From Patescibacteria group bacterium (lineage in GTDB: Bacteria > Patescibacteriota > JABMPQ01), in the NCBI GenBank assembly GCA_041749335.1, contig JBGTBM010000009.1, forward strand, positions 179 through 64,178: a stretch of DNA of 64,000 nucleotides. The letters run 5' to 3'. Both the position numbers and the translations under genes were made by a program. Below the pieces are notes generated by a model. It worked only from the letters and a program-made list of their open reading frames with translations. It made no database searches and was not told the origin of the DNA. Position 1 is the stretch's first letter, and each line of letters starts with the position of its first letter. Shown here piece after piece: positions 19,726 through 61,989 of this stretch.

Positions 19726-20789
19726 TGAAAGTATTATTTATAACTCGCAAATATCCTCCGCAGGTTGGTGGAATGGAAAAATATAGTTATGATTTAATTA
19801 AACATTTTCCAGCAGAAAAAAAAGTTATTTCACTTAATAAATCTCAAATTCATTTAATTTGGTTTCTTCCTTATGCGCTTATTAAGGCAATTTATTTATC
19901 TAGAAAAGTTGATTTAATATTTTTATGCGATGGTTTACTAGCACCTATAGGATTTATAATCAAAATTATTACTAAAAAACCTGTTATATCTGCCGTTATG
20001 GGACTAGATGTCACTTACAACAATAAAATATATCAAAATATAAATGTAAGATCTTTAAAACACCTCGACGGCATCATTTCAATTAGCATTGCAACTATAA
20101 ATGAATGTCTAAAAAGAAATATTGCTAAAGAAAAAATAATTTTTATTCCTATCGGAGTTAATTATAAAATTAGTAATAACAATAAATCTAAAAATGAGCT
20201 CTCGAAATTTATTAAAAAAGATATATCAAACAAAAAAATATTTATTACGGTCGGCCGTTTGGTAGAAAGAAAGGGAGTTGAATGGTTTGTTACAAACGTT
20301 ATACCAAAATTAAGCAATGATATAGTTTATTTAATAATTGGAGATGGACCCAACAAAGATAATATTAATAATGCTGTTATTAACAATAAAGCTAAGAATA
20401 AAGTATTTTTACTTGGAAGAATTTCAGATACAGAATTAGATCTTATATATTCAACAGCTGATATATTTATAATGCCCAATATAAAAGTAAATAATGATTT
20501 AGAGGGATTTGGGATTGTAGCTATAGAAGCATCTTCTCATGGTTTACCCGTTATCGCTTCACGCTTAGAAGGAATTCAAGATGCTATTATTAATAATAAA
20601 ACTGGCTTTTTCGCAGAACCAGAAAATGCCTCTTCTTTTATTAATAAAATCAATGAAATTTTAACTATGCAGGAGTATAATAAATCAAATTTAAGGTCTG
20701 AAATTCATCAAAATACAATAAAGTATTATTCCTGGAATAATATAATGAATCAATACAATAAATTTTTTAAATATGTCATCAATAAATAA
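19725..20789 (+). CDS. Glycosyltransferase family 4
   Basis: EGFGIVAIEASSHGLPVIASRLEGIQDAI is the GT4 EX7E region. Confidence 0.8.
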   Translation: MKVLFITRKYPPQVGGMEKYSYDLIKHFPAEKKVISLNKSQIHLIWFLPYALIKAIYLSRKVDLIFLCDGLLAPIGFIIKIITKKPVISAVMGLDVTYNNKIYQNINVRSLKHLDGIISISIATINECLKRNIAKEKIIFIPIGVNYKISNNNKSKNELSKFIKKDISNKKIFITVGRLVERKGVEWFVTNVIPKLSNDIVYLIIGDGPNKDNINNAVINNKAKNKVFLLGRISDTELDLIYSTADIFIMPNIKVNNDLEGFGIVAIEASSHGLPVIASRLEGIQDAIINNKTGFFAEPENASSFINKINEILTMQEYNKSNLRSEIHQNTIKYYSWNNIMNQYNKFFKYVINK

Positions 20790-21675
20790 AATAAAAGTTA
20801 GTATAATTATCCCAACATATAATGAAAAAGAGAAATTAATTAATTGCATAAATTCAATATATAATCAAAGCTACCCAAATAATTTAATTGAAGTTATTGT
20901 AATTGATGATGGTAGCACGGATGGAACAAAAAATTATCTAAAATATAATTTTAAAAAAGTATTATTAATTGAAAAGCAAAATACCGGAGCCTATGATTCA
21001 AGAAATAGGGGTATAAATATTGCCACCGGAGATATTTTAGCGTTTACAGATTCTGATTGTGTCGCAGATAAAAATTGGATAAACAATATTGTCAAAAATA
21101 TTAAAGATAGCAAAAATATAATCGCGGGAGGAAAAATAGTTCACAAAAATAATTTTATTCAAAAAGTCATTGGCATTTCCGATTTTGGCGAATATCAAGA
21201 TGACAAAATTAAAAACATTAATGCAATACCAACCGCGAATCTAGCCGCAAGTAAAATTATTTTTGATAAATATCGTTTTGATCAAAGCTTAAAATCCTCT
21301 GGAGACCGCCTATTTAGCTGGAAACTTTTCAAAGATGGATTCAAACTTATATATTTCCCCGACATAATCATATTTCATGATCCATCCATCAAATTATCCA
21401 GATTTTTTGAAAGAAAATATCGTTATGGCAAATCCTTTATAGAAATAAGAAAAAACCATCCCGATTTACCAGGCTCAAAAATAGTTAAGTATCATATATT
21501 AGGCGCTTATTTAATTTCCATCCTAAGAACCATTCTGGATATATTCAGATTATTTAAAACATTGAAAAATAATAATATTAAGATATATGAAATAGTACCA
21601 GCTATCGTACTTATTGGCCTAGGGAGAATTACTTTCTTATGTGGAAATATTGTACAATTGATTAAAAATGATTAA
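20773..21675 (+). CDS. Glycosyltransferase family 2
   Basis: VSIIIPTYNEKEKL...VIVIDDGSTDGT. Confidence 0.8.
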   Translation: MSSINKIKVSIIIPTYNEKEKLINCINSIYNQSYPNNLIEVIVIDDGSTDGTKNYLKYNFKKVLLIEKQNTGAYDSRNRGINIATGDILAFTDSDCVADKNWINNIVKNIKDSKNIIAGGKIVHKNNFIQKVIGISDFGEYQDDKIKNINAIPTANLAASKIIFDKYRFDQSLKSSGDRLFSWKLFKDGFKLIYFPDIIIFHDPSIKLSRFFERKYRYGKSFIEIRKNHPDLPGSKIVKYHILGAYLISILRTILDIFRLFKTLKNNNIKIYEIVPAIVLIGLGRITFLCGNIVQLIKND

Positions 21676-23326: not shown

Positions 23327-24187
23327 TTATTTATTTTTTGTTTTAATTTTTAAATAACCCCACAATAAAAATATTTTTAAAATATTAAAAGTATAAATAT
23401 ATTTTAATTTATATTTTAAACTTGGAATTTTTTCCTTAAATATTTCAAGTGGAATAAATAATTTAACAATTTTATTTTGTTTAAAATTATTATTTTTTCT
23501 TTTTAATAATATATGTCCTTCCTTAATTCTTATATATTTTTTATATAATTGCTTAAAGGAACTATTAGCAGGATGCTGCACTATTAAATTATCAGCGTAT
23601 TTAATTTTATATCCGTTTTTGTAAACTCTTCGACCCCATTCATAATCACCGCCAGATTTAAGTTTATCATTAAAGGTTCCAACCTTATTAAACAATTCTT
23701 TCCAAGTAAAAAGATTTGCTGTTACTCCAAAATTTTCGTGTTTTACGTAGTATTCTTGTGGAAATGCATGGACAGAATCATAGACTTCAACTGAGTTTAG
23801 TTTATTTTTATTTTTATAATACAATTCAACTCGACCCGCTATAACTTTATATTTCGGATTATTTTTAATTTCCCTTACGCCTATTTCTATCCAATCTTTT
23901 TGAGGAATACAATCAGAATCCGTAAATCCAATAATCTCTCCCCTGGACTTATTTATCCCTAAATTTCTTGCAGCATATGATCCTATTTTTTTTTCAAAAC
24001 AATATTTTACATTTTTATATTGATTAACTACATCTTTAATATTTTCTGTTGAATTATTATCAACAACAATAATCTCATAATTATTTTCATTATATGTTTG
24101 ATTTATTAATGCATACAAGCACTTTTTTAATCTTTCGGAATCATTATATATAGGAATAATGATACTCGTATCTATATAATTATTCAT
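23327..24187 (-). CDS. Glycosyltransferase family 2
   Basis: TSIIIPIYNDSERL...EIIVVDNNSTEN. Confidence 0.8.
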   Translation of the reverse strand: MNNYIDTSIIIPIYNDSERLKKCLYALINQTYNENNYEIIVVDNNSTENIKDVVNQYKNVKYCFEKKIGSYAARNLGINKSRGEIIGFTDSDCIPQKDWIEIGVREIKNNPKYKVIAGRVELYYKNKNKLNSVEVYDSVHAFPQEYYVKHENFGVTANLFTWKELFNKVGTFNDKLKSGGDYEWGRRVYKNGYKIKYADNLIVQHPANSSFKQLYKKYIRIKEGHILLKRKNNNFKQNKIVKLFIPLEIFKEKIPSLKYKLKYIYTFNILKIFLLWGYLKIKTKNK

Positions 24188-26743: not shown

Positions 26744-28240
26744 TTAATTAGCATTTTTAAAGATTTTTGTTCGAATATTTTTTAAACTTTCTCTAATGTA
26801 ATATTTAATTTTTTCTATTTCTCTCGCTTCAAAAAATTTTATTAAATACAAAAGTGCAAAAAATAACAATATTAATATAATTTTAATAATAAACAACCAA
26901 ATTATATTAAACTCTGGTATGAATCTATCGACTATTAATATAAATATAATTACCAATATTATTTTTATAATCCTATTCCATTGATAATTTATTTGATAAA
27001 AATAATTACTAACAAAATAGGTTAATATTATTAACAATGAATAAGAAATAATTGTCGAAATGGCCGCTCCTAGCATAGAATATTTAGGAATTAATATAAT
27101 ATTTGAAAAAATATTAATTGCTCCGCATATAATTAATATTAAGGCGGAAATTTCAGTTCTCCTTTTTAAATTTATTCCAATATTAATCATAAAATAAATT
27201 CCATAAAATAAATACGATAAAGCAATATATGGAACTATTATAGCCGCTTGATAATATGCTTCGGTGGAAATTATTTTAATTATTTCTTCTGAAAATACCG
27301 TTATTCCGGTAAAAAGAAAACCTCCTAATAAAACATAGTATATTATAATATAAGAAAAGATATTTTTAGCTTTTTCTTCTTTCTTTAATATTGACCACAT
27401 TATTTGCGCCCAAGCTAACTGAACAGGAGCAACAAATAAAAAATTAATCATCATGCCAATGTTGTAGCCCAAGGTATAGATACCGACGATGGAAGATCCG
27501 ATCATTCGCTCCAGCAAAAATCGATCTATCATAGTCATCACCCATGATGCCAGCGCAGCGGGAACTAAAGGAATGCTAAATCTTAATATTTTTTTCAATT
27601 TTACAAATGAAAATCTAAAATCAATATTTTTAATAATTATTGGCAGGCTCATGATGAAAAATATCATAAAGGCATACATCATTCCCCTCAATGCACCTAT
27701 AACTCCTTGATCCAAATATACCATAAAATATAATATCAATCCGATCTGAATAATTAAACGTGCGATAATATACAAACTATATATTTTTGATTTTGCCTTT
27801 GATCTCAATATCGATAGTGAAATCAATGATCCGACATCAAAAAAAGATGTAATAAATATTATTCTTAAATATTGACCATAATCTGCAGTCGCAAAAAATA
27901 ATTCGGAAATATTATCAGCATAAATATATAAAACTGCTACTACGAGTAACGAAAACAAAAATAAGAATATTACGATAGTGCTCACTAGGTTTCTTCTATC
28001 TTTCTCTTTTGTATAATCGTATATGTAAAAACGAAATAATGTGGTTTGCAGGCCCAAGGATAACATTATTATTACGATATTTAGAGTAACAGTCATAAGA
28101 GATAAAACTCCGTATTCATCAGTTGATAAGACCCTGGTATATACTGGAATTAGAATAAAAGCGATAATCTTGCTAATTAAGCTACCAAAACCATATATTA
28201 TTGAATGTTTCCCTGTTTGTTTAAGATATTTCGCGATCAT
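26744..28240 (-). CDS. wzx: Wzx-type oligosaccharide flippase (MOP superfamily)
   Basis: About 14 TM helices and an N-terminus typical of polysaccharide biosynthesis proteins (SIIYGFGSLISKIIAFILIPVYTRVL). Confidence 0.7.
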   Translation of the reverse strand: MIAKYLKQTGKHSIIYGFGSLISKIIAFILIPVYTRVLSTDEYGVLSLMTVTLNIVIIMLSLGLQTTLFRFYIYDYTKEKDRRNLVSTIVIFLFLFSLLVVAVLYIYADNISELFFATADYGQYLRIIFITSFFDVGSLISLSILRSKAKSKIYSLYIIARLIIQIGLILYFMVYLDQGVIGALRGMMYAFMIFFIMSLPIIIKNIDFRFSFVKLKKILRFSIPLVPAALASWVMTMIDRFLLERMIGSSIVGIYTLGYNIGMMINFLFVAPVQLAWAQIMWSILKKEEKAKNIFSYIIIYYVLLGGFLFTGITVFSEEIIKIISTEAYYQAAIIVPYIALSYLFYGIYFMINIGINLKRRTEISALILIICGAINIFSNIILIPKYSMLGAAISTIISYSLLIILTYFVSNYFYQINYQWNRIIKIILVIIFILIVDRFIPEFNIIWLFIIKIILILLFFALLYLIKFFEAREIEKIKYYIRESLKNIRTKIFKNAN

Positions 28241-29999: not shown

Positions 30000-31523
30000 A
30001 TGAATAATAATAATAATAATAATAATAAAACTAAATTCATTAAATTTTTTATATATTTAATACCGATATTAATTTGTTTATGGTTATTAAATAAATATTT
30101 CGTTTTTACGGGAAATTTAGATTCTTCCTACGTTTTTGACAATCAACCTTCAATATTTAATGAACTACAACCCGAAACTCGCGTGCATAGCCCAGAAATA
30201 AATTTAAAAACCGGTGAAAAATATCAAAGGATTCAGAGTGAACTGGTTTATTTTTCATTAAATATACCCCGATCTTTTCAAAAAGCTAATTTTACTTTTA
30301 CTTTCGACGCTCCCTCACAGCCAATAATTAATGTCGGAATAAAAAGAGCTTATGAAGATACTAGTTATGAATTTAAAACTTTAAAAAATGACTATTTTGA
30401 TAAATTAAATAAATATTGGACCAAAACTTATGACAAAAATAATAAAATAGTCTTAATGCAAAATTTAAATAAAGAGAATGAAAATTATGATACGGTACAA
30501 GGTTTTATTAATAATCCGCCTCAAAATAAAAAGATTGGAACATATTATATCGATTTAACTGATAATAAAAAATTAGAAAATTATAAACCCTCCAATAAAA
30601 TTAACAATATTGAAACTCCCTTAAGGGGCAAACACGAAATATACACATATATTAAAGATGAAACTCTAGATTATAATTTCTCTTACTATGATTTAAATAA
30701 CGAAGAAGGCCTAGATCAATTTAATATTAATGTATATAAAGGTCTTAAACTCGTTTATTCAAATTTATCTGAAGATGATGGAAATAATAAAGCAAATAAT
30801 TTAGTTTCTGAGTTTAAACAATTCCAACTTAAAATTCCTGATTTGGCTGAAGGTAAATATTTAATAAAACTCGCTTTACCAGAAGATATTATAATAAATA
30901 AAATTACTACCAGGCAGAAATACACTGTATTTGCAAGCAGAATACGCACTGTTGGCAATCGATTAGAATTTAATAATGATTATTCTTTTTCAGAAGTTCC
31001 TGTTAAAATATTTTCGCCTAATTCAAATTTTCAATTAAGAACATTCGGCCCTGTCAGCGAACAAGAAATATTAATAGACAATCAAAGCATTACTTTATCT
31101 TCAAATAACTCATCGCTTATAAATCATTCGACGGGCAAAGAAAATAACGAATTAATAGAAATTAATGCTCCCCTTGGCAATATTTTATTATTGGCACCTA
31201 TCTTTGTTTTTAATAAAGAGCAATATTTTGATCCATATTTTAATATAAACCAAATAGCATTAAATACTGCAATATCAGATGAATTTGATTATATTATTGG
31301 TACCATTGACGATTATTTAACCCCACAAAAATATCGCAATTGGTATAAAAACGAAATATCATTTGAAACCGCTAACGCCTACACGGAAAATGGTGAATTG
31401 AAATTTGCAATTCAAATTCCCGGATTTAACAACATTGATGATGTAATTATAAAAGATATTAAAGTCAACTTGCAGACCGATAATATATTTAAAAGATTAT
31501 TTAATAAAATAAATATTTATTAA
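30000..31523 (+). CDS. Hypothetical TM-anchored extracytoplasmic protein with N-terminal poly-Asn tract
   Basis: MNNNNNNNNNKTK, then one TM helix, then a roughly 470-aa hydrophilic domain with no recognisable motifs. Confidence 0.4.
   Translation: MNNNNNNNNKTKFIKFFIYLIPILICLWLLNKYFVFTGNLDSSYVFDNQPSIFNELQPETRVHSPEINLKTGEKYQRIQSELVYFSLNIPRSFQKANFTFTFDAPSQPIINVGIKRAYEDTSYEFKTLKNDYFDKLNKYWTKTYDKNNKIVLMQNLNKENENYDTVQGFINNPPQNKKIGTYYIDLTDNKKLENYKPSNKINNIETPLRGKHEIYTYIKDETLDYNFSYYDLNNEEGLDQFNINVYKGLKLVYSNLSEDDGNNKANNLVSEFKQFQLKIPDLAEGKYLIKLALPEDIIINKITTRQKYTVFASRIRTVGNRLEFNNDYSFSEVPVKIFSPNSNFQLRTFGPVSEQEILIDNQSITLSSNNSSLINHSTGKENNELIEINAPLGNILLLAPIFVFNKEQYFDPYFNINQIALNTAISDEFDYIIGTIDDYLTPQKYRNWYKNEISFETANAYTENGELKFAIQIPGFNNIDDVIIKDIKVNLQTDNIFKRLFNKINIY
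30003..30029 (+). repeat. (AAT)9 trinucleotide microsatellite inside the start of a CDS
   Basis: aat repeated 9 times immediately after the ATG. Confidence 0.9.
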
Positions 31524-31526
31524 AAT

Positions 31527-31910
31527 ATGAAATACCTATTTAAAACATTTATTCATATTAAAAATTCAACGCTGCTTATTATAAATACAATATTTATCAC
31601 ATCTCTTTTTTCTTATCTTTTATTGTTTTTGTTTAATATATTCCTAGGGGATTTTATCACTAATTTTATAAATTTAAATTATTTATTATATCCACTTGGA
31701 ATATCTTTAATTATTTTAATTTTTAATAATAACAATACTTATATAAACCAAGAATCTAACACTTTAACCCGTTTATTTATTTCTATTATTGGAAGCTTTA
31801 TAATATTCTTTTTAGCTAAAGAGCTGGGAGTATTTAAGTGGTTATTGACTCTATCGATTTTTTTTATACTATTTTATTCTACAAAGAACTTCAATAACGA
31901 TTCGCAATAA
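31527..31910 (+). CDS. Small 4-TM membrane protein, GtrA-like candidate (lipid-linked sugar flippase)
   Basis: 127 aa with about 4 TM helices, immediately upstream of a GT-C-like gene and near a GtrB-like GT2. Confidence 0.35.
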   Translation: MKYLFKTFIHIKNSTLLIINTIFITSLFSYLLLFLFNIFLGDFITNFINLNYLLYPLGISLIILIFNNNNTYINQESNTLTRLFISIIGSFIIFFLAKELGVFKWLLTLSIFFILFYSTKNFNNDSQ

Positions 31911-31968: not shown

Positions 31969-33888
31969 ATGAATAAAGTATTTAATTTTAATAAAATTAT
32001 TTTATTAATCAAATATATTAATATTATTTTAATATCTACTACTTTTATATTTTTACTTTATATAATTTTTTATTTGTTTTTATCCTTTAATTATTTAAAT
32101 TTATTATTTACCCATTCTGACATTTTTCTTTTTTCTTTAATATTATTTGATTTATTTATTATTTTTATATTTATTAAAAATAATAAATCATTAAATATAA
32201 ATATTCTTTATTTATATATTGCATTATTTATTTTATTAGAAGTGCCCTTATTAATTAACGGCTTTAATAATTCTATCATCCTTTTTCAAGATTTAGATTA
32301 TAATCAGTGTTTTATTGTAATATTTCTCGGAATGATAATATATTTTTTTACTAACAAGGGTAAATATTTATCTAGCAAAATTTTTAATAATAATTTACTT
32401 ATTATTAATTCTAAAATTAATAATAAGTCTAAATATTCCATATTATTAATATTTTTATTATTTTTACTTATAAAACTTTTAATTCCTTATTTTTATCAAG
32501 GATCATATATTGATGAATATTTTCATATTTTACATGGTATAAATATTTTTAATAACCTTGAAACAAATTATATCCGGGGCCTGCCCATCACCTTTTTATG
32601 CGGCCTACTTATTAATTTATTTGGAAATGAACTTTTTATTTTAAAATTAATTCCGGCAGTTATCGGAATCATAAACTTTTTGTTGCTTTATAAAATATCA
32701 AAATATTTTTTTAATAATTACAAATATACTTCATTATTATTAGCAATTTACACAATTTCTCCTTGGATAATTTTTAATCATTTTTATATAAGGTTTTATG
32801 TTTTGTACGAATTATTATTATTATTATCAATTTATATTTATTTTATAGTCAATAATTCTATAGCGAAAAAAAGATTAGTTTTGTCGCTATTATCCATAAT
32901 CATTTTCATTGTATTTAATGTTTTATTGTTCTTTATAATTAATGATTCCGGCTTTTATATGATAATTATTTTTAATTGTTTTTTAATATTCTTTTTAGTT
33001 ATTAAAAGTATATTAATTTTATCAAATGCAATTATAAAAAATATTTTTAAATATTTTTTTTATATACTTATAACTTTTTTCTTTTTTTATTTATTATTTA
33101 ATAATAAATTTAATTATTTAATAAAAGTAAATCTTGCTAACACCAACTATGAAATAAATAAATATGAATATTTCTTTTTTTATAAAAATATCGGCTTTAC
33201 AATATTATTTATTTTATCAATTTTTATCGCTTTAAAACATTTAAATAAAAAAGGTGAAATCAAATCTCAAAATATTATATTTATAGCTTCCTTTTTAATT
33301 CTGATAATACATTTAATATCTTCAAGTGACTTGCAACTAATTCGAAGTATAGTATACTTTATCCCCTTGTTTTATTTAGTTGCAATTTATTCTCTTAAAC
33401 ATTTAAATATTAAATCTATCTATAAATACCCAATAATGCTATTTTTATTTTTAACTATATTCAACAACTACCCAAGTAAATTTTTTAGCGATGGGCCTTA
33501 TATACCTTCAGAAGTTTTTTACCGAAGATTTAAAGAATCTTTTGACTTTATTAAAAATAATTGTGACGATTATTTCATAATTAATTTGACAAAAAATCAT
33601 TATGTTTCTTCTTTCTATGATATTAACGAATATTATCTTATTAATTCAATTTATTATAACAATCCATTGAGTGTTAATTATGATAATAAATTTATTAATT
33701 ATGAAAAATATAAAAATAAAATAAGAAAAAATGAGAATATATGTTATTTATATTCTCATTTGTGGTCAGTTAATAATAAAAATAAAACCTATCAATCTAT
33801 CCGTAGATACCTTAAAAATAATTATGATGATAAAATATCCTTTGGTAATTTTGAAGTGTTCATTTTTTTAAATAAAAATAATAATTAA
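31969..33888 (+). CDS. GT-C family membrane glycosyltransferase-like protein (ArnT/PMT/YfhO-like)
   Basis: 639 aa with many TM helices. YIDEYFHILHGINIF is DE-motif-like in an early loop. It converges on the GtrB-like GT2. Confidence 0.4.
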   Translation: MNKVFNFNKIILLIKYINIILISTTFIFLLYIIFYLFLSFNYLNLLFTHSDIFLFSLILFDLFIIFIFIKNNKSLNINILYLYIALFILLEVPLLINGFNNSIILFQDLDYNQCFIVIFLGMIIYFFTNKGKYLSSKIFNNNLLIINSKINNKSKYSILLIFLLFLLIKLLIPYFYQGSYIDEYFHILHGINIFNNLETNYIRGLPITFLCGLLINLFGNELFILKLIPAVIGIINFLLLYKISKYFFNNYKYTSLLLAIYTISPWIIFNHFYIRFYVLYELLLLLSIYIYFIVNNSIAKKRLVLSLLSIIIFIVFNVLLFFIINDSGFYMIIIFNCFLIFFLVIKSILILSNAIIKNIFKYFFYILITFFFFYLLFNNKFNYLIKVNLANTNYEINKYEYFFFYKNIGFTILFILSIFIALKHLNKKGEIKSQNIIFIASFLILIIHLISSSDLQLIRSIVYFIPLFYLVAIYSLKHLNIKSIYKYPIMLFLFLTIFNNYPSKFFSDGPYIPSEVFYRRFKESFDFIKNNCDDYFIINLTKNHYVSSFYDINEYYLINSIYYNNPLSVNYDNKFINYEKYKNKIRKNENICYLYSHLWSVNNKNKTYQSIRRYLKNNYDDKISFGNFEVFIFLNKNNN

Positions 33889-34818: not shown

Positions 34819-36150
34819 TTATTTTATTAATTCACTCTTAATAATACCGATAATATATTTTATATTTAAATTTATTTTTAATTTTAATCCCAATTTTTTT
34901 CTTAAATAATATATCTCAAATATCGCAACTACCAGCTGTGCAAATACTGTTACGATTACTGCACCCAATGCTCCATAAAATGGTATAAATATTAAATCTA
35001 GTATTACATTAACTGCTGCACCAAATAATACAATGCGTGTTGTGTATTTAGCGTACTTTGTAGCTATTAAAAAAGTTCGACAGACACTAAATATTTTTAT
35101 TAATAAAAGTGGTAGTAATACTTTAAGTAATATAATTGATGCTTGATATTGAGGAAATAATTTTTCAATTAATGAATCTGATAATACAAATAAAAGTAAG
35201 GTGGTTGGAAAAACAAATATAATCGACAAGGATAATATTTTTGTAAATAATTCCTGGAGTTTTTCTTTCCTTCCATCAATAAAATAAGTAGTAATCACCG
35301 GTGCGAATACAGCACTAATAAAAGTAAATATTACTACAAATGGCATCTGAAATATTTTGTCAGCTACATTAAAATAAGCAACTTCGGCATTATCACAATA
35401 TTTTCCAATTATTATAATATCTATTCTAGTATATAAAAAATATGTCACGCTCGTTATACTAATCGGAATTGCATATTTTATAATTCTTTTTCCTGTATTA
35501 ATAATATAAATCTTTTGTTCTTTTATATATCTTAAATATTTATAATCGATTATTATAAACCCAAATATTACAGAAATTAATATTCCAAATATTGTTATTA
35601 ACAAAACATTAAGAATTTCTAATTTTTGATATTTGATCAATGCCAGCAATAATGATATTTGAATAATTCTAGATATAAAAAAAGTTAGAGTAGAATATTT
35701 CAAATTTTGGTAACCTTTAATAATACTTTCAACTATTGCACTTGAACAAGATATAATTATAAAAGCAGGTGCGATTTTTAATAAAATTGTAAGTTCCTCT
35801 CTATTAAATATTTTTGAAATATAATCTTTTAATATAAATAAAACAATTCCCAATATTAAAGAAATTATAATTGAATAAATTATACTAGTTATGATTAAAG
35901 ATCTTGTTTCTTTTTTTTCAATTTCCTTGTTTGATAAAGATTCAGCGATATATTTTGATGTAGACTCACTTAATCCGTTTACTACAAAGTACATAAAAAA
36001 GAAGGTGATTGAATAAAATAATAAATATAACCCATATTTATCAGGGTCCCAAGTATTAGATAAAATAAAAAAAACTACAAATATTGAAATATTTGATATT
36101 ATTATTTGAATAATTTTCCAGAAACTATTCCTCGCTATCTTTGATATCAT
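34819..36150 (-). CDS. wzx: Wzx-type flippase (MOP superfamily), second copy
   Basis: 443 aa with about 12 TM helices. Confidence 0.65.
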   Translation of the reverse strand: MISKIARNSFWKIIQIIISNISIFVVFFILSNTWDPDKYGLYLLFYSITFFFMYFVVNGLSESTSKYIAESLSNKEIEKKETRSLIITSIIYSIIISLILGIVLFILKDYISKIFNREELTILLKIAPAFIIISCSSAIVESIIKGYQNLKYSTLTFFISRIIQISLLLALIKYQKLEILNVLLITIFGILISVIFGFIIIDYKYLRYIKEQKIYIINTGKRIIKYAIPISITSVTYFLYTRIDIIIIGKYCDNAEVAYFNVADKIFQMPFVVIFTFISAVFAPVITTYFIDGRKEKLQELFTKILSLSIIFVFPTTLLLFVLSDSLIEKLFPQYQASIILLKVLLPLLLIKIFSVCRTFLIATKYAKYTTRIVLFGAAVNVILDLIFIPFYGALGAVIVTVFAQLVVAIFEIYYLRKKLGLKLKINLNIKYIIGIIKSELIK

Positions 36151-37051: not shown

Positions 37052-37756
37052 CTAACTATATAATTTTTTTCCTACAATAATAAATCTTCTAAGAAATGTT
37101 AATCTCAATTTATATATTTTTGAATTAATAGAATTGCCCTTGTAAAACAATGTTAAAACTTTAATTAATTTACTAATTATTATTCCAATTACCCCCTCAA
37201 GGAATGAATAAAAATATTTATATTCAAATGTATTAAGATTATTATTATAAAATATTTGAATAATTCGCCTAACAGTCGTTATATTATTATGAGTATAATC
37301 GCAATTAAAAAAATCATTTCTCCAATCTAAATAATCTGGACTAAGTATTATTATCATCCCTCTTTTTTTTAATACTCTTTCTGATTCTGAAATAAATGTT
37401 TCTGCCTCATTAGAATTATTTAAGTGCTCATATACATCAAAACATAAAATTATATCATACGATTCATCTATTTCATTCAATGTTGGTATTTTATAATTAC
37501 TTACCTTTCGGACACCAATATTCTTCATTAATTTATTCATATTAATATTTGGCTCAACAACATCGTAATTTTTATATCCATTTTTGAGAAATACTTTTGC
37601 CAAATCTCCCTTCCCTGGTCCAATTTCTAAAATATCACAATTCTTACTTCTTAAATATTTACAAATATATCTAAAATCTCTCTTAGTTTTTCTATTATGT
37701 AATAATTTACCAATTTTAGTAGATTTGCTTTCTGCAAAGTGGTCAAAATATGGCAT
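37052..37756 (-). CDS. Class I SAM-dependent methyltransferase
   Basis: Motif I ILEIGPGKGDL and post-I ILCFDVYEHL. Confidence 0.7.
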   Translation of the reverse strand: MPYFDHFAESKSTKIGKLLHNRKTKRDFRYICKYLRSKNCDILEIGPGKGDLAKVFLKNGYKNYDVVEPNINMNKLMKNIGVRKVSNYKIPTLNEIDESYDIILCFDVYEHLNNSNEAETFISESERVLKKRGMIIILSPDYLDWRNDFFNCDYTHNNITTVRRIIQIFYNNNLNTFEYKYFYSFLEGVIGIIISKLIKVLTLFYKGNSINSKIYKLRLTFLRRFIIVGKKLYS

Positions 37757-38813
37757 TGTATATCTTTTTAAGTTTTATTAAATAATTATTTAATGAATAT
37801 TTTATTGCAGTTTTATAACCTTCTTCAATAATGTTTTTTCTATAAATATTATTTGTAGAAATATTAATAATCTTTTTAGCCAAATCTTGTGAATTATTAA
37901 CTTCAAAAAGCAATCCATTTTTTGTATTTATTATTTCATTGAGCCCATATGTGTTACTTGCAATTACAGGTGTTCCGCAAGATAACGATTCTAATTGAGT
38001 CATCCCCAGTGCTTCCCATAAAGATGGAATCACAAAACAGTCTATTGAGTTATAGAAACTAGGCATATCATATATCATACCAATCAAGAAAACATTATTT
38101 TGTAGATTATAATTATTAATTATATTTTTAATTTTATTTCTGTCTGGACCATCACCAGCTATTAGAAATTTAAATCTTTTATCATCACATGCTATTTTTT
38201 TTGCAGCGTTTAATAAAATCTTCCAACCCTTTCTTTTATTAAGTCTTGCTGCAAAGCCTATTAAAATATCTTTTTTGCTTATATTATATTTTGTTAAACT
38301 AAATTTTTTTAAAGAAAATTTTTTAAATTTATCTGTATCAACAAAATTATATAATACCTCAATTTTATTTTTTTTAACTTTGGCATTTTTAATTAATAAT
38401 TTCTTAATATGATCAGACACTGAAATAAATTTATTAACTCTATCTTGTGCAAAATTAATAAACAAATTATATAATTTTTGATTTTTTACTATTTTCCCGT
38501 GTTCATGGAAAATTAATTTTATATCTTTATTAATAAAAGCTTTATATAAATATCCAATCAGAAATGACTTAAATAAATGGCAGTGTAATATATTAAAATC
38601 CTTTTTTTTAACTATCTTTTTTAAAATTAATAAACAACCAATATTGATTTTTCGGTAAGATTTATTATATATAATATTGCCATAATTATATTTTCTTACA
38701 GAATTTCTAAGAGAAAAACAATAATTAGATTTATCCTTCCTGATTATTCCTAATACAACAGTTTGAGCTCCTCCCAAACCTAGATGATCAATTAAGTGTA
38801 GTATTTTTTTCAT
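37743..38813 (-). CDS. Glycosyltransferase family 4
   Basis: HLIDHLGLGGAQ at the N-terminus and EALGMTQLESLSCGTPVIASNTYGLNEII. Confidence 0.8.
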   Translation of the reverse strand: MKKILHLIDHLGLGGAQTVVLGIIRKDKSNYCFSLRNSVRKYNYGNIIYNKSYRKINIGCLLILKKIVKKKDFNILHCHLFKSFLIGYLYKAFINKDIKLIFHEHGKIVKNQKLYNLFINFAQDRVNKFISVSDHIKKLLIKNAKVKKNKIEVLYNFVDTDKFKKFSLKKFSLTKYNISKKDILIGFAARLNKRKGWKILLNAAKKIACDDKRFKFLIAGDGPDRNKIKNIINNYNLQNNVFLIGMIYDMPSFYNSIDCFVIPSLWEALGMTQLESLSCGTPVIASNTYGLNEIINTKNGLLFEVNNSQDLAKKIINISTNNIYRKNIIEEGYKTAIKYSLNNYLIKLKKIYNAIF

Positions 38814-38994
38814 ATCTAAATTTTACATATCGTATATATATTCCACTTCTTGAAGGTGTTAATTTTTTTACAAATTCAAATTTAACTTTACATCTACTGC
38901 CCATTTAAATTATTAATTTATTATATATATCTTTTAAATCTTTTTCTTAAATCATAGATCTTTTTCCAATTTTAATGGTTATTTTATTAATATC

Positions 38995-39420
38995 CTATTG
39001 GATTATCTGAAATATTTTATCAGCTGCATTAAAATAAGCAACTTCGGCATTATCACAATATTTACTAATTATTATTATATCAATTCTAGTATATAAAAAA
39101 AATATGTGATACTAGTGATGCTTATGAGTATGGCATATTCTAATATTTTCTTTCCCACTCCACTAATAAAAATTCTTTGCGCCTGAAGATTATTCAAATA
39201 TTAATGCCTTCATTTTTTGACAATGATTGTGCGATATATTTGGCAATTGATTCACTTAAACCATTAACAATAAAATACATAAAAAAGAAAGTGATTAAGT
39301 AAAAAGAGTAAATAAAGCCCATATTTATCCGGACTCCATGCGTTAGATAAAATATAATAAATTAGCAAATAATGCTAAATTGTATATTATTATTTGTATT
39401 ATTTTCCAAATACTGTTTTT
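38995..39420 (-). pseudogene. Degenerate remnant of a Wzx flippase gene (internally deleted paralog of 34819-36150)
   Basis: 39001-39140 aligns to 35340-35470 and 39225-39420 aligns to 35935-36130 at roughly 80-85% identity. No ORF survives. Confidence 0.75.
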
Positions 39421-40573
39421 AAGAATTATTGTCGACATTATTAATTAATTTTTTATAATTTATTTCTAGATCCTTACAAATTTTCGAAATATTAAAATTG
39501 TTTATAGTGTGTTTTTGTCCATTTAATCCTATACAATCTCTTAATTCCGTATTTTTTAATAATTCTATTGTTTTTTTTGCGTATTTTATTGGATCATTTT
39601 CAATAATAATATCCTGATTGTTTTTAGCGTCAATTCCATATGCACCTATGCTCGTAGTTATTACCGGCATCCCCGCAGCCATAGCTTCAAGAATTTTAAC
39701 TTTGATTCCACTTCCCCATGTTATTGGTGCCACAAAAACCTTATAAAAAGTAAAATGATCTTTAACATCACTAACTTCTCCACAAAGTATTATATTTTTA
39801 CTTTTCATCATTGATATTTTTTCATAATATTTTCCAATAATATAGAATTTTGCCCGTGGTATTTTTAATAAGATTTCAGGAAATATATTCTTAATGAAAT
39901 AATTTACAGCATCAATATTCGCATAATGTTTAAAATTTCCGATAAATAATAATGAATCTTCTTTAATAATATTTCTTTTTTTATTATACTCATTGACCTT
40001 TAGGCCTATTGGGCAAACTTGGATGTTTAAATTATTATTTTCCTTTTTTATTAATAGTTTATCGTCTTTACTTCTCGTTAATATTAACTCCGCATGCTTT
40101 AATATCTGCATTTCTACTTTTTTAACAATCCAATATTTTATTAAATTTAATATTTTAGATGTACCCTTGCTATATTGATATCGAGTCTGCCTACTGCCAA
40201 ATAATACATCTACCTCACTTATTACTATTTTTTTGTGTTTTATAAAAGGAGAATATAACCCACATAATGTATATTCTATATGGACTATTTGAATATCGTA
40301 AATTTTAATAATATTATTTATTTCTAATAAAAATTCAGTAAAATAATTTTTAATGAATTTTATAGGATTTTTATGAAATTTTAATTTATTAAAAACTTTT
40401 AAATAGGCACAATACTTCATTAGATTATCCATTTCTTCCTTTTCATAGCCCTCTATCCGTGAAATAAAATAGATATCATTTTTTTTTGATAATTCTTTTA
40501 TTAAATTAAGCATATACACCCCCCCTCCATGAAATCTTGAAGGAAAATGAGTTGAAACAATTAATATTCGCAT
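39419..40573 (-). CDS. Glycosyltransferase family 4
   Basis: MRILIVSTHFPSRFHGGGVYM at the N-terminus and a C-terminal GT-B domain. Confidence 0.75.
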   Translation of the reverse strand: MRILIVSTHFPSRFHGGGVYMLNLIKELSKKNDIYFISRIEGYEKEEMDNLMKYCAYLKVFNKLKFHKNPIKFIKNYFTEFLLEINNIIKIYDIQIVHIEYTLCGLYSPFIKHKKIVISEVDVLFGSRQTRYQYSKGTSKILNLIKYWIVKKVEMQILKHAELILTRSKDDKLLIKKENNNLNIQVCPIGLKVNEYNKKRNIIKEDSLLFIGNFKHYANIDAVNYFIKNIFPEILLKIPRAKFYIIGKYYEKISMMKSKNIILCGEVSDVKDHFTFYKVFVAPITWGSGIKVKILEAMAAGMPVITTSIGAYGIDAKNNQDIIIENDPIKYAKKTIELLKNTELRDCIGLNGQKHTINNFNISKICKDLEINYKKLINNVDNNS

Positions 40574-40616: not shown

Positions 40617-41400
40617 TTACTTTAATTTACATACAAATATTGTCCCCGCACAACATATCCATGGAGATATTGACTTTAATATTCCTTCTAATTTATTTCC
40701 GATTCCATTTAATTCATATTTTTTATTTTTTGCTCGTAGAAATGGGAAGTCCATATAAAAACCCATACTTTTAGGTTTTTTAAAATCATCGGCTGCAATT
40801 TCAACAATTTGAAAACCATTCCTAAGTAAAATCTTTTTAAATTTATTTTTTGTAAAACGATATTCGCCAAAAACCATTTTACATCCATTGATTTTATTTA
40901 ATAAAACAAATATATTTTTTATATGATTTATAAATAATCTTCTGATAAAATTTTGAGTTGGAATTGTTATAATCAGATAACCATTTTTTCTTAAAACCCT
41001 TCTCATTTCATCCAAGGCCCCTTGGGGACCCTCCTTAAAATGTTCCACCACTCCTAATGAAATTATTACATCAAAATAATTATTTGGATATTTTATATCT
41101 AATATATTTCCTTTTTCAATTTTAATATTACTTCCAGATAATTTTATTTTTTTTATATATAGCATCATCACTTAACTCTATCCCTTGAATATCATATCCT
41201 TGACTATTTAAATAGAATACCCACCTTCCTAATCCGCATCCCGCCTCTAATATTTTATGAGTTTTTTTTAAATACTTATTAAATATATCATCTACATTTT
41301 GGTATTTACACAATGCAATTCCTTCATTTATTGATTGACCCAACCAACATTGGCCTAAAGTATCTCTATTATTTTCTTTTTGATAATGTATATAAGTCAT
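40617..41400 (-). pseudogene. SAM-dependent methyltransferase disrupted by a frameshift at an A8 (plus-strand T8) homopolymer
   Basis: ORF 41128-41400 carries motif I ILEAGCGLGRW. ORF 40617-41171 carries FDVIISLGVVEHF and LRKNGYLII. The frame switches within the T8 run at 41147-41154. Confidence 0.65.
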
Positions 41401-42439: not shown

Positions 42440-43738
42440 TTATATTTCATTAATAGTATATAAATATTTTCCGTTTTTTAAACAATTAATATTTTTTACA
42501 AATTCCCAATCTATTTTACAGCTTTGTCCCATCACTTTTTTAATTGATTTTTCGATTCTATTTCTGTTCTCTTCAAATAATGTCTTCCTTTCTAAAACAA
42601 CCTTAATAAGTATTTTATTATAATTCTTTTGAATTACTTGAAATTTTTTAATATAGCCTTGATTATAAATTACCCCTATGAAATGTATAAAATATTCCGC
42701 GGGTATAATTTTACCCTCTTTCGTCGTAAATATACTTATTTCCCTACCCTCAACTTTTTCTAAATAACTCCAATTTTCACCTCTAATACCAATATCACCT
42801 ATTTCATATCTAATAAAAGGCATTGAGTAATTATTTAAATTAGTGATATAAATCTTATTATTTTCTAATACTTCTAAATAATTATTCCAAAAACTCAATT
42901 TCAATCCTTGATTAGTATTATCATCACACGCCATATCCCCAACTTCCCTTGATCCATATCGATTAAAAACTTTTGTTTTAAAAACTTCTTCGATCTTCTG
43001 TTTTATTTCTGGATATAGCGTACCAGCGGAAGTTAAAATTCCTTTAGGACTATACATTTTAAAATTATTTCTTTGAATAAATTTAGCGAATTCAGACATT
43101 GACTGAACATATGCCTCTACCCAAACCGGCTTAAACTTATTCCAATCTTTTACAAATTTTCTCATATTCTTTTCTGACATTTTAAAACTATTTAATTCTT
43201 TTCTATTATATAAAAAGTTTTTTAAACGCGTTGAGAACATTTCCTTGTCCAGTAATAAATCCCTCTCTGATCCCCATAAGCGCAATTCTCTATACCCCAT
43301 ATCTTGCTTAGCAAAAGTCTTAAAATATATTTTGTTAGCAATATTCCAATCACTATAATTTTTATCTTAAAGAAATCTTACCGGCTCACCTGTGCTTCCA
43401 CCAGAAGTATTTTCGTAGAATCCTCTTTTTTTGTAATCTTTAGAATATAAATTACTCCCTTCGCTTCTAATTATTTCTTTTGTAAGAATGGGAATTTTAT
43501 TGAAATTTTCCAAATATACTTTATTATTTTTAACAACTCCGGCCACTGCTAAAATCTTATGATAATATAGAACATTCTCGTAGGCATGCTTTAGTATTTT
43601 TTTAAGCTTTTCCTTTTGATATTTCTCCTTTTCCGATAAAGAAAAATTATTAATTTTTTTTATTTCTTTTATGTTTCCAGAAATTTTACTGCCAGCTAGA
43701 TAAAGGAAGAAATATATTATTGGTTTACGCCAGTTCAT
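42440..43738 (-). pseudogene. CapK/PaaK-like adenylate-forming enzyme (phenylacetate-CoA ligase family) interrupted by an in-frame TAA
   Basis: The upstream ORF ends ...TSGGSTGEPVRFL* (AMP-binding motif). The same reading frame continues after the TAA at 43367-43369 (minus strand) as DKNYSDW... into ORF 42440-43300. Confidence 0.65.
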
Positions 43739-58011: not shown

Positions 58012-59427
58012 CTATGGTCGTACAAAAACTTTATCCCCAACCATTGTCCAATTATATAACCAAGCTGCATTTTGTACAGATACATTAATACATCCATGGC
58101 TCATTGGATGGCCGAAATTATTATGCCAAAAAGCTCCATGCAAAGAATAGGGACCGTTAAAATACATTACGTAAGGAACATTTGGAATATCATAATTATC
58201 CGGATGATTTTCGCCATAATCCCCCGTCATGCGATCCTCGGCTAAACGAAGCCAGATACTAAAATCTCCCACGGGCGAAGGATATTTACTGATGCCCGAT
58301 GATATTAAAAATTCATTTACTTTTCTACCGCCCTTATAGGCTTGTAGTTTCTGTTCGGATAAGTCAACTTCAATATATTTATAGATATCCCGGCCTTCCC
58401 AAATTCTTCGTCCCGGCACGGTAACAATTTCGGTAGCGCTGCTTTGATCGACATTGCCAATAGCCACTTTTACACCACCCCTAAAATCATCTTCGTATGG
58501 CCGTAAATCCAAAGCTTTAACCGCCCCATAAGCCTCAAATGTCCGTACATGCGGCGCGTAGCCATTGCTGCCAACTATTACCTCGGCTTCTCCATCGCGA
58601 TCAATATCACCAGAAGCAACATTAACCCCTTCCCGGTATGATTCAGAAAAAGCTAAAAAATCACCCAAAATTCTTTTACTGGCATCGCCCTTATAGACCT
58701 TGACTTGCGCGGTGCCAAAGTAATTTTTCGCCGCAATTATCTCTGATTCACGCCCGCCGTCAACATTTCCGCACGCGACATCTACGCCTCCCCGATGACC
58801 CTCTTCAAATGGGAACAGGCTCAATCCCATAAATTCGCCTTTGCCGTTAAAGCCTCTGACATGGGCTGTAGAATTCATGCCTGATCCGGTTATAATTTCT
58901 GCCTTGCCGTCTCCATTAATATCGCAAGCAGCTACTCTGGCTCCGCCTTCAAAATTTGAATCATAGGCGATAAATTCCGCTAAAACTTTCTTTTCCGCAT
59001 TTACCTGATACGCCTTTACCCATGCTTGACCGTCTCCAAACTGGGAAATAATTAATTCATCTTTCTTATCACCATTGATATCGCCGCAAGCCACATCAAC
59101 TCCGCCGCGGAAATCCGGATGAAACGGAAAGAAGCTAAACCCGGTAAAATTGCCTAAATTATCAAACATCCTGACATGCGGTCCGCCGCCGGCTCCCGCA
59201 CCCACAAAAATTTCATCCACGCCATCATTGTTGGTATCGCAAACGGCAATATTGCCTCCGCCCTTAAACGCTTCGTCATAAGCTAAAAAGCTTTTATCTA
59301 AATGTTTATTATCGGTATTAAAAATCTTTACTTCCGGCGCTCGGTATTCCGCGGCGTCCGCAATATTTAATAGCAAAAAAGCTGCCATAAAAATTACGCC
59401 AAAAACTAGGATATTTTTTATCTTCAT
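58012..59427 (-). CDS. Secreted FG-GAP/VCBS-repeat beta-propeller fused to a C-terminal L,D-transpeptidase (YkuD) domain
   Basis: Signal peptide, then about 6 (C/S)GD(I/V)(N/D)GDG...E(I/V)(I/V) repeats, then a C-terminus ending ...SLHGAFWHNNFGHPMSHGCINV. Confidence 0.7.
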   Translation of the reverse strand: MKIKNILVFGVIFMAAFLLLNIADAAEYRAPEVKIFNTDNKHLDKSFLAYDEAFKGGGNIAVCDTNNDGVDEIFVGAGAGGGPHVRMFDNLGNFTGFSFFPFHPDFRGGVDVACGDINGDKKDELIISQFGDGQAWVKAYQVNAEKKVLAEFIAYDSNFEGGARVAACDINGDGKAEIITGSGMNSTAHVRGFNGKGEFMGLSLFPFEEGHRGGVDVACGNVDGGRESEIIAAKNYFGTAQVKVYKGDASKRILGDFLAFSESYREGVNVASGDIDRDGEAEVIVGSNGYAPHVRTFEAYGAVKALDLRPYEDDFRGGVKVAIGNVDQSSATEIVTVPGRRIWEGRDIYKYIEVDLSEQKLQAYKGGRKVNEFLISSGISKYPSPVGDFSIWLRLAEDRMTGDYGENHPDNYDIPNVPYVMYFNGPYSLHGAFWHNNFGHPMSHGCINVSVQNAAWLYNWTMVGDKVFVRP

Positions 59428-60255: not shown

Positions 60256-61989
60256 TTAATACCTAATCGCCTCAATCATCGCCGAAAGATTCTTTTCCCA
60301 GTCATTTGAGACTCCATCAGACAATTCAACTGTCAAAGCCGGAATGCGAAAATACTGACTGGCCCAAGAAGATAGATCACCTGATATCGGATAATGCGTC
60401 CAGACATAGCTCTCCTCTGCATCATTATAATGAGAAAATTGATTATAAAATTTGGCGAATTCAAACGACGGCGGATATAAAGCGCCTGGCACTATTTCAG
60501 AAGCAAAAATTTGATCCGCAGCAGAATGATAAGATATTAATTTTTCTACTCTTTCCTTCTCCAAATATTTTTTTAAAGCTTGATTCTCTACTTCACTAAA
60601 AGGATAAGGGCCGCCTGAAACTTGTCTGCTCCAAAGATATCCGATACTGCTCCAATTATTGGTGGCAAAATTTCTATTTAAATCCACGCCATTGGCATTA
60701 TATCTGCTATTACCGCAATATCCGTCCGGATTGTGCATGGGAATAATAATTACTTGATAGCCAAAAGGTATTTTGTCCAAATTATTCTCAATATAAAATT
60801 TCCATCTATTCATTAAAGTAACGGCATTGGCTTCGCTTCCGGCATGCGTTCCCCCAACATAAATAATTTTTTTATAGCCATCGCCGTAAATATAAGATTC
60901 AATGGGCCGATTTTGTACCGAATAACCAATTACTTCCCTAAATTTCAATCGGCGCGACAAAGGCGCGGCAATGATTTCTACTTGATTATCTTTATCAACA
61001 TTGCCCAATATTACAGTAAAGCCCCCGCGAAATTCTTGATCATAGATTTGATAGCTATTAATAATCGGATTGCCGTTTTTATCCAAAATCCGAATAAAGG
61101 GGCTGCCATTGCAATTAGGAACGGTAATTATTTCACTAAACCCGTCATGGTTATAATCCCCGGCTGATATATTTACTCCTCCCTGATAAGCTTCAGCGTA
61201 GGCAATAAAATCACTGATAATTTCATTATTATCCCGATAGATTTTTATTCGGGAAGTAGCAAATTTATTCGCCGCCAGAATGATTTCTTCTTTTTTATCT
61301 CCGATAACATTAGCGACTGTGACATCCACCCCGCCCCGATAATCCGCCGGAAACGGAAAAAAATTTATTCCCATGGAGTTGCCAGCTTTATCAAATGACA
61401 AAACATGGGGACCCCCGCCAACGCCCGCTCCGGTCAAAATTTCACCAATCTCGTCTCCATTAATATCACCGATTGCTACATGAGCTCCGCCTTCAAAATT
61501 TTCATTGTAGGCTAGAAACTGGGAAATTAAATATTCCCGGTTATTTTTTATTTTATATACTTTGATCCAAGCCTGCCCCAATGATTTTTGACTGACCGCA
61601 ATCTCTTGATACTGGTCTTGATCTAAATTTCCGCAAGCGATATCAATCCCGCCATGAAAGTCGGGATGAAAAGCAAAAAATTCATATTTAACTTCTCCGC
61701 TTTGGTCAAAGATTCGGATATGCGGACCGCCGCCAACCCCCGCTCCGGTAATTATTTCATCAACGCCATCCTGATTAAAATCGCAGGCGGCAATATTTAC
61801 TCCTCCGCGAAAATCTTGGCCATAAGCTAAAAAACCGGATTGCTTTTGTAAATTTTCAGAATCAATAATTTGAACATCAGGCGAAGTTTCGTAATAAATC
61901 TGGGCGCTAGTCTGATGAAAGAAAAAACTAAAAGTAAATATAAAAAAAATACCGATTATTAATTTTAAATATTTATAATACTGAATCAT
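60256..61989 (-). CDS. Secreted FG-GAP-repeat beta-propeller fused to an M14 zinc carboxypeptidase domain
   Basis: FG-GAP repeats paralogous to those of 58012-59427. The C-terminus carries HAGSEA (HxxE) and ...PMHNPDGY... and YHSAADQ, which are M14 zinc-ligand motifs. Confidence 0.65.
   Translation of the reverse strand: MIQYYKYLKLIIGIFFIFTFSFFFHQTSAQIYYETSPDVQIIDSENLQKQSGFLAYGQDFRGGVNIAACDFNQDGVDEIITGAGVGGGPHIRIFDQSGEVKYEFFAFHPDFHGGIDIACGNLDQDQYQEIAVSQKSLGQAWIKVYKIKNNREYLISQFLAYNENFEGGAHVAIGDINGDEIGEILTGAGVGGGPHVLSFDKAGNSMGINFFPFPADYRGGVDVTVANVIGDKKEEIILAANKFATSRIKIYRDNNEIISDFIAYAEAYQGGVNISAGDYNHDGFSEIITVPNCNGSPFIRILDKNGNPIINSYQIYDQEFRGGFTVILGNVDKDNQVEIIAAPLSRRLKFREVIGYSVQNRPIESYIYGDGYKKIIYVGGTHAGSEANAVTLMNRWKFYIENNLDKIPFGYQVIIIPMHNPDGYCGNSRYNANGVDLNRNFATNNWSSIGYLWSRQVSGGPYPFSEVENQALKKYLEKERVEKLISYHSAADQIFASEIVPGALYPPSFEFAKFYNQFSHYNDAEESYVWTHYPISGDLSSWASQYFRIPALTVELSDGVSNDWEKNLSAMIEAIRY

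Follow-up and report, generated by a model that had tools for sequence, protein, structure and literature searches.

Gene Content of the Locus

The window, by which we mean the whole 64,000-nt stretch of DNA analyzed here, is chromosomal and carries valS, pyrG, aspS, secD, secA, metK, gmd, and ugd; the named best hits of its AspS protein are Patescibacteria (CPR). At ~20–45 kb, the GC content lies at 17–29% versus ~36% in the flanks. The genes of this low-GC island encode glycosyltransferases, methyltransferases, a sulfotransferase, a pyruvyl transferase, PMT_2 membrane proteins, and an ArnC-like GT2. An extreme GC trough of 17–19% is found within the island at 32000–34000 and 30000–31523. The ORF 30000..31523 begins with MNNNNNNNNK; neither it nor the ORFs 31527..31910 and 31969..33888 have a Pfam match, and it alone of the three has a detectable counterpart (37% identity) in the related island L003.

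Several other features of the window deserve mention. An 838-aa fusion protein encoded at 24227–26743 (minus strand) combines an FrhB/FdhB-like part (F420 hydrogenase beta) with 4Fe-4S and polysaccharide pyruvyl transferase domains. Positions 23888–24166 and 20800–21081 share 67% inverted DNA similarity, covering the N-terminal parts of the GT2 genes 23327..24187 (minus strand) and 20773..21675 (plus strand), which from this similarity we take to be another old paralogue pair in the island. DNA similarity of 73–74% links 61706–61833 with 59162–59289 and 61423–61518 with 58879–58974. These repeats join the neighboring genes 60256..61989 and 58012..59427, pointing to a common domain; their counterparts in the genome L007 carry FG-GAP repeats with peptidase M14 and YkuD, respectively. 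A perfect 28-nt GC-rich palindrome, GTAGGGGCAACTCGCGAGTTGCCCCTAC, sits amid AT-rich DNA at 574–601.

Comparison with relatives allows for a delimitation of the variable part of the locus. Judged by AspS, the nearest genome is L007 (79%), whose gene order matches that of the window from secA up to the first gene of the island, within the DNA compared. The island L003 shares conserved flanks with the window, namely a LamG-like protein (53% identity) and the first GT4 gene (46%) on one side and the ArnC-like GT2 (79%) on the other, while its downstream membrane proteins and second flippase are 37–56% identical. Between the conserved flanks, L003 holds a different, shorter gene set with a single wzx. 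Judged from its genes, the locus behaves like a classic hypervariable glycan cassette site.

The flippase gene that is central to this work, 34819..36150 (minus strand), encodes a protein of 443 aa matching PF01943 (Polysacc_synt) over aa 6–289 with 111.4 bits (cut-off 28.2), with further profile matches to Polysacc_synt_3, MatE, and MurJ. The protein aligns over its full length with its two nearest database homologues (P0002 and P0003), and a Kyte-Doolittle scan detects at least 10 strong hydrophobic segments, with ~12 transmembrane segments being typical of the class. It scores below all curated NCBIfam flippase cut-offs (Wzx_EPS, 41 bits vs 800; PRK10459 MOP flippase, 41 vs 273). Alignment, profiles, and hydrophobicity together point to a predicted Wzx-like flippase of the MOP superfamily that belongs to no named subfamily. 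Neither an initiating phosphotransferase nor a Wzy was identified next to the gene; a Wzy_C protein is encoded ~20 kb away. A third, unrelated MOP-family flippase, HfsF-like and 498 aa long, is encoded at 26744..28240 (minus strand), adjoining PMT_2-type membrane glycosyltransferases; it is 23% identical to the intact Wzx and 56% conserved in L003.

Flippase-like Sequence in an Intergenic Gap

At a distance of 3.7 kb from the intact wzx and within the same cluster, a gap of 605 bp separates two GT4 glycosyltransferase genes on the minus strand, one of 384 aa immediately upstream (39419..40573) and one of 356 aa immediately downstream (37743..38813, ATG at 38813). No ORF longer than 42 aa is present in the gap. 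When positions 38500–39900 were compared with the whole 64-kb window by blastn at sensitive settings, two matches to the intact wzx emerged, of 39005–39155 with 35345–35493 (84.1% over 151 nt, E 2e-41, 162 bits) and of 39209–39417 with 35923–36129 (77.0% over 209 nt, E 3e-39, 154 bits). Both blocks are collinear with the intact gene and in the same orientation, and in a self-comparison of the window they are its strongest internal repeats. To set the chance level, we drew 100 first-order Markov resamples of the region; their highest-scoring matches across the window had a mean of 35 bits and reached 48 at most.

A tblastn search with the intact Wzx protein extends the homology upstream to an ATG of the relic's own at 39438. 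The relic thereby shares its first 20 nt with the 3′ end of the GT4 gene upstream, whose stop codon lies within the first codons of the relic. The relic start reads MSTIILKNSIWKIIQII, and the counterpart in the intact gene reads MISKIARNSFWKIIQII. From this ATG (39438–39436), block A (39209..39438, minus strand) covers wzx codons 1–76 in blastn, tblastn, and the three-way alignment. Its tblastn matches, to Wzx aa 1–29 and 16–76, fall in different frames, since single-nucleotide insertions (C) at 39365 and 39308 distribute the block over three frames. The ORF starting at the relic ATG consequently runs for only 31 codons, up to a stop at 39345–39343.

Block A is followed by an internal deletion junction (39201..39208), where ~8 nt of unaligned filler replace wzx codons 77–204 (~384 nt). 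The only microhomology at this junction, 'ATT', was dismissed as meaningless in DNA of 23% GC. Block B (39005..39200, minus strand) then resumes with codons 205–269, detected by blastn and by tblastn (aa 205–240 and 237–269), and carries a two-nucleotide insertion (TT) at 39102–39101. The last 96 nt of block B are 94% identical to the intact wzx and include an exact repeat of 37 nt (39027..39063, equal to 35367–35403). Codons 270–443, the 3′ 526 nt of the gene, are absent.

The stretch 39005..39438 is thus collinear with the intact wzx, and its three insertions and two large deletions leave no intact frame. An Rfam search of the 605-bp gap returned no match, and promoter-like sites are not in excess within it (14 found vs 10.2 +/- 2.9 expected).

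These results can be set against an earlier note on this DNA, which had described the region as the fossil of a second Wzx flippase gene that suffered deletion and decay. The homology from the start codon on, the frameshifting insertions, and the two large deletions bear this description out. The two matching blocks were recovered at nearly the positions the note gave, with identities that prove essentially right and lie far above random, and its statement that no reading frame survives agrees with the longest ORF of 42 aa. The note further held 465 bp between the blocks to be missing; a loss is real, but its size is ~384–429 nt, as block B reaches 39200 and thereby wzx codon 205. It mentioned neither the minus-strand orientation nor the loss of the 3′ end.

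Probable Further Disabled Genes in the Island

Downstream of block B, the same frame continues after wzx codon ~268 as FQIIQ, DINKITIKIGKRSMI, EKDLKDIYNKLII, and MGSRCKVKFEFVKKLTPSRSGIYI, separated by three in-frame stops at 38997, 38949, and 38907. This continuation (38820..39003, minus strand) reaches almost to the start codon of the downstream GT4 gene and probably, though not certainly, represents the C-terminal ~60 codons of a CapK/PaaK-like gene. In tblastn it matches aa 223–280, the C-terminal end, of ORF 42440..43300 with 34% identity and 33.5 bits, only modestly above the noise given by 500 composition-matched resamples scored against 13 island proteins (maximum 30.0 bits, mean 19.1); blastn gives 68% over 171 nt. 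The 67-aa conceptual peptide has no NCBIfam match. At the point where the wzx and capK parts meet, both parents share a K-x-F-Q stretch, reading AAAATATTTCAGAT in wzx and AAAAAATTTCAAGT in capK.

The parent-type gene itself, at 42440..43738 (minus strand), carries Pfam CapK_C in precomputed annotation, while PaaK/F390-synthetase-type models stay below their cut-offs for the CapK-like ORFs. It is interrupted by a single in-frame TAA (43369–43367), with the frame unchanged on either side, which suggests a nonsense pseudogene. Together with the probable fossil, this would mean that both capK copies of the island are dead. A SAM-dependent methyltransferase gene (40617..41400, minus strand) is likewise split, into ORFs of 90 and 184 aa, where the frame shifts within an A8 run (41147–41154, read as T8 on the plus strand). 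The gene could be a genuine pseudogene or be phase-variable at this tract, or the run could contain a homopolymer error; the independently assembled contig L001, described below, carries the identical sequence.

The disabled capK and methyltransferase genes both lie in the upstream half of the island, as does the relic. Among the functions present twice (wzx, methyltransferase, and capK), at most one copy is intact in each case, whereas the unique transferases are all intact.

Assembly Support

Exact-protein look-up of the two flanking GT4 genes retrieved two Logan contigs from run SRR28170473, made with another assembler, and both are 100% identical substrings of the window. Contig L001 (7,024 nt; window 46057 to 39034) spans the upstream GT4 gene and block A, crosses the internal deletion, and covers the larger part of block B; it hence carries both the GT4–relic and the internal-deletion junctions. 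Contig L002 (3,215 nt; window 39056 to 35842) begins within block B and continues through the CapK fossil and the GT4, methyltransferase, and sulfotransferase genes into the 5′ part of the intact wzx; it carries the wzx–CapK junction.

The end of L001 (39034) and the start of L002 (39056) both fall within the single 37-nt exact repeat, and a break inside an exact repeat is expected of a short-k de Bruijn assembler. Since L002 starts in the repeat and ends within the intact wzx, no linear path other than the order in the window accommodates every piece exactly once; joining the pieces the other way at the repeat would leave a 3.66-kb circle. In addition, the homology persists to either side of the repeat, with mismatches specific to each copy. 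A mis-assembly at the relic is therefore unlikely, and the check for one that the earlier note had called for is largely answered by these contigs, albeit probably from the same sample. All sequence support comes from SRR28170473 and a MAG probably derived from it, and as such tests the assembler, not the biology. Exact look-up of the neighboring GT4 proteins found this one sample only, and exact look-up of the intact Wzx protein found no record in Logan contigs, probably because the contigs break inside the gene.

Divergence and Past Selection

Comparison of the retained codons can offer a greater insight into the history of the two copies. We aligned the 140 codons retained in the relic, with frameshifts removed, to the intact wzx and to the L003 wzx; the values below are to be read with this number of codons, saturated silent sites, and the single outgroup (L003) in mind. 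The relic and the intact gene differ with pN 0.15, pS 0.61, and dN/dS of ~0.13, compared with pS 0.62 and dN/dS of ~0.20 for the intact and L003 genes. Differences between the relic and the intact gene at codon positions 1/2/3 amount to 23/21/55 (chi-square p 1.6e-5). For a copy without any functional past, a pairwise dN/dS of at least ~0.5 would be expected. Both the third-position bias and the dN/dS of ~0.13 point to selection for protein during most of the divergence of the two copies, that is, to past purifying selection on the relic as well. With silent sites as saturated as for the L003 pair, these values suggest that both copies diverged for a long time as working genes.

When L003 is used as outgroup to assign changes to branches, those on the relic branch are almost evenly spread over the codon positions (12/14/20, p 0.32), whereas those on the branch of the intact gene are biased toward the third position (6/5/17, p 0.009). 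This difference fits a late release of the relic from selection. As a rough inference, both copies would have encoded selected proteins for ~70–90% of their divergence, with the relic drifting by a few per cent since.

The two copies are each other's closest relatives. Amino-acid identity over the retained codons is 71% between relic and intact gene, 62% between the intact and L003 genes, and 51% between relic and L003; nucleotide identity is 75–78% for the first pair versus 70–72% and 65–68% for the pairs with L003, giving the topology ((relic, wzx), L003 wzx). Among 5.8 billion proteins, none is a closer match, the next best reaching 51%. At codons 237–269 the similarity rises to 94% at the nucleotide level with pS 0.20, and third-position differences number 4 in 32 compared with 52 in 108 elsewhere (Fisher p 2e-4). 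Such a tract could be the footprint of gene conversion between the two copies. It is, however, also conserved relative to L003 (10/32 third-position differences).

The similarity does not extend beyond the reading frame. In blastn, tblastn, and self-comparison, the flanks of the relic and of the intact wzx have nothing in common at the DNA or protein level, and the two wzx blocks are the only repeats between the regions.

Searches for a relative that retains the ancestral arrangement were likewise negative. Homologues of the upstream GT4 gene do not exceed 35% identity, and the contexts of the two best hits are unrelated. A profile scan of genome contigs with the Wzx alignment gave only a 27% Omnitrophota hit, and metagenome contigs yielded nothing with protein patterns or with a degenerate DNA pattern for NAEVAYFN[VA]ADKIFQ. 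Across the homologue, genome, and metagenome contig searches, no relative was found with an intact gene at the relic position or with a second wzx, and the ancestral state is for this reason reconstructed rather than observed. As a separate observation, the glycan cluster of a distant relative (L008, 3749–6004) encodes a 751-aa fusion of a Polysacc_synt flippase domain to a methyltransferase domain, and this gene overlaps the start of a GT4 gene 32% identical to the 384-aa GT4 of the window.

Decay and Origin of the Second wzx

The gap can be best explained as the in-place wreck of a once complete and functional second wzx, made dispensable by the other flippase and then broken, a reading that we consider highly probable. 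The ancestral gene would have had ATG 39438 as its start codon and thus have overlapped the stop of the GT4 gene before it, as is usual for co-translated operon genes, and a CapK/PaaK-like gene would have come after it, either directly or beyond further genes. The presence of another wzx of the same subfamily in the island (34819..36150) likely rendered the second copy dispensable, redundancy being the presumed cause of the loss. Decay would have involved an internal deletion of codons 77–204 and a deletion that joined wzx codon ~268 in frame to capK codon ~222 at the K-x-F-Q stretch. With the latter, wzx would have lost its 3′ 526 nt and capK its 5′ ~660 nt, along with whatever lay in between; the shared stretch suggests, from the two parent sequences, that this deletion was mediated by microhomology. 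Three small frameshifting insertions and scattered point changes add to the damage. In its present form, the relic appears to have no coding function and to document gene turnover at this GC-poor, hypervariable surface-glycan locus.

As to the source of the second gene, an old paralogue and an imported cassette gene are about equally plausible. In the latter case, the upstream half of the island (GT4-capK-GT2-MT-GT4-wzx) would have been recombined from a related strain that had a wzx of its own, and redundant genes would have been lost once this half was joined to the resident cassette. The position of the locus between conserved flanks, with entirely different content between them among relatives, agrees with such an import, as does the GC content of 17–29% versus 36% in the flanks. 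The dN/dS of 0.13 accords with a divergence that took place in separate genomes, the disabled genes are concentrated in one half of the island, and this mode is documented for O-antigen loci (PMC3715488). On the other hand, no donor-like sequence was found in protein, genome, and metagenome contig searches, and the sequence closest to the relic is the resident wzx.

That last observation agrees better with a duplication inside the genome, of wzx alone or of a larger segment whose flanks were later replaced, after which both copies worked for long and one decayed; we regard this as a reasonable, if tentative, possibility. The relic and the resident wzx are sisters relative to the L003 wzx at the same locus, the 94% identical 96-nt tract could reflect gene conversion in one genome, and the island halves are loosely parallel in content (capK, methyltransferase, wzx). 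Against this origin stand the lack of shared flanking DNA and silent sites as saturated as between organisms. The conserved tract is also kept relative to L003, and constraint together with AT-biased codons can explain it. Moreover, the other paired genes are only 25–35% identical. A tandem duplication of a whole module (capK-x-MT-x-wzx, twice) was rejected, as the non-wzx pairs are this divergent and not collinear. The segmental duplication within the island that the earlier note had proposed is consequently not shown, given similarity confined to the wzx reading frame, silent sites near saturation, and a dN/dS of ~0.13.

A more far-reaching version, which we hold to be rather unlikely, is that two complete glycan cassettes were fused into a composite pathway, an event to which the relic, the dead capK copies, and the frameshifted methyltransferase could jointly bear witness. 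Flippase, methyltransferase, and CapK would each have been reduced to one working copy or none, whereas the transferases unique to either cassette would have been retained. In its stronger form, the 94% tract could stem from gene conversion that still takes place between the relic and the intact wzx.

It is very improbable that the relic arose as a recent partial duplication of wzx that never encoded a protein. Although two collinear blocks at 77–84% identity might be left by such an event, it predicts differences distributed equally among the codon positions and a dN/dS of at least ~0.5, compared with the observed 23/21/55 and 0.13. The start codon is moreover kept in an operon-style overlap with the upstream gene, and saturated silent sites imply that the copy is not recent.

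Equally doubtful is the retention of the relic for a function of its own, be it as silent conversion donor, as promoter or spacer for the downstream GT4 operon, or as the source of a 31-aa hydrophobic peptide. The 94% tract with its 37-nt exact repeat, the ATG still coupled to the upstream gene, and a non-coding stretch of 605 bp, large for a compact CPR genome, could be taken as hints of such a role. They are opposed by promoter-like sites that are not enriched, by the lack of an Rfam match, and by indels and stops that resemble neutral decay.

Finally, there is hardly any chance that the relic is an artefact of a chimeric join at the 37-nt repeat or of a strain mix: the short-k assembler could not resolve the repeat and every dataset comes from one sample, but L001 alone links the upstream GT4 gene to both relic blocks across the deletion junction, the path of L002 back into wzx leaves only the order of the window or a 3.66-kb circle, and copy-specific mismatches extend beyond the repeat on both sides.

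Comparison with Known Systems

The decayed second wzx finds its nearest parallel in the B1/D1 O-antigen clusters of Salmonella enterica, where a wzy remnant lies between transferase genes following serial deletions after another wzy took over, with different gene parts surviving in different lineages (PMC3715488; Reeves et al. 2013). In both cases, a glycan-processing gene would have been lost once another did its job, leaving a non-coding remnant between two transferase genes. In contrast to Salmonella, the gene concerned here is wzx instead of wzy, its surviving counterpart occurs in the same cluster at a distance of 3.7 kb, and IS or H-repeat elements are lacking; the host is a Patescibacteria MAG with no sister strains showing the intact state.

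In Oenococcus oeni, a truncated wzx is present in a reduced eps2 cluster (PMC4047060; Dimopoulou et al. 2014). There, too, a truncated flippase gene has been left in a variable exopolysaccharide cluster. The O. oeni gene is 99% identical to the intact allele of other strains and hence reflects a recent loss (PMC4047060), whereas the nearest intact gene of our relic is ~75–84% identical at the DNA level with saturated silent sites.

The pneumococcal cps loci display a low-GC, cassette-like center between conserved flanks and many divergent Wzx groups (PMC1391919; Bentley et al. 2006). The island described here resembles Wzx/Wzy-dependent capsule and O-antigen loci in its low-GC center, conserved flanks, and cassette-like variation, while, unlike the characterized capsule loci, it is known from its genes alone and not from its glycan, lipid carrier, or acceptor. 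Remnants of processing genes in polysaccharide clusters are well documented, and the relic adds one more, from a phylum that has been poorly sampled.

Conclusions

The relic can be regarded as an ordinary gene loss in a fast-changing surface-sugar cluster. For annotation, the 605-bp "intergenic" stretch should become two pseudogene fragments, and the significance of the find beyond annotation is small. The locus nevertheless offers a view of an island in turnover, where no fewer than four gene copies have been inactivated within ~6 kb and which would once have had two flippases of one subfamily. To our knowledge, the surface glycans of CPR bacteria are almost unstudied. If the rather unlikely merger of two cassettes were true, the island would capture in progress the way in which episymbionts with tiny genomes arrive at new surface glycans. 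With population data from sister strains, the locus could serve to illustrate in detail how cassettes merge and redundant genes are pruned in CPR bacteria.
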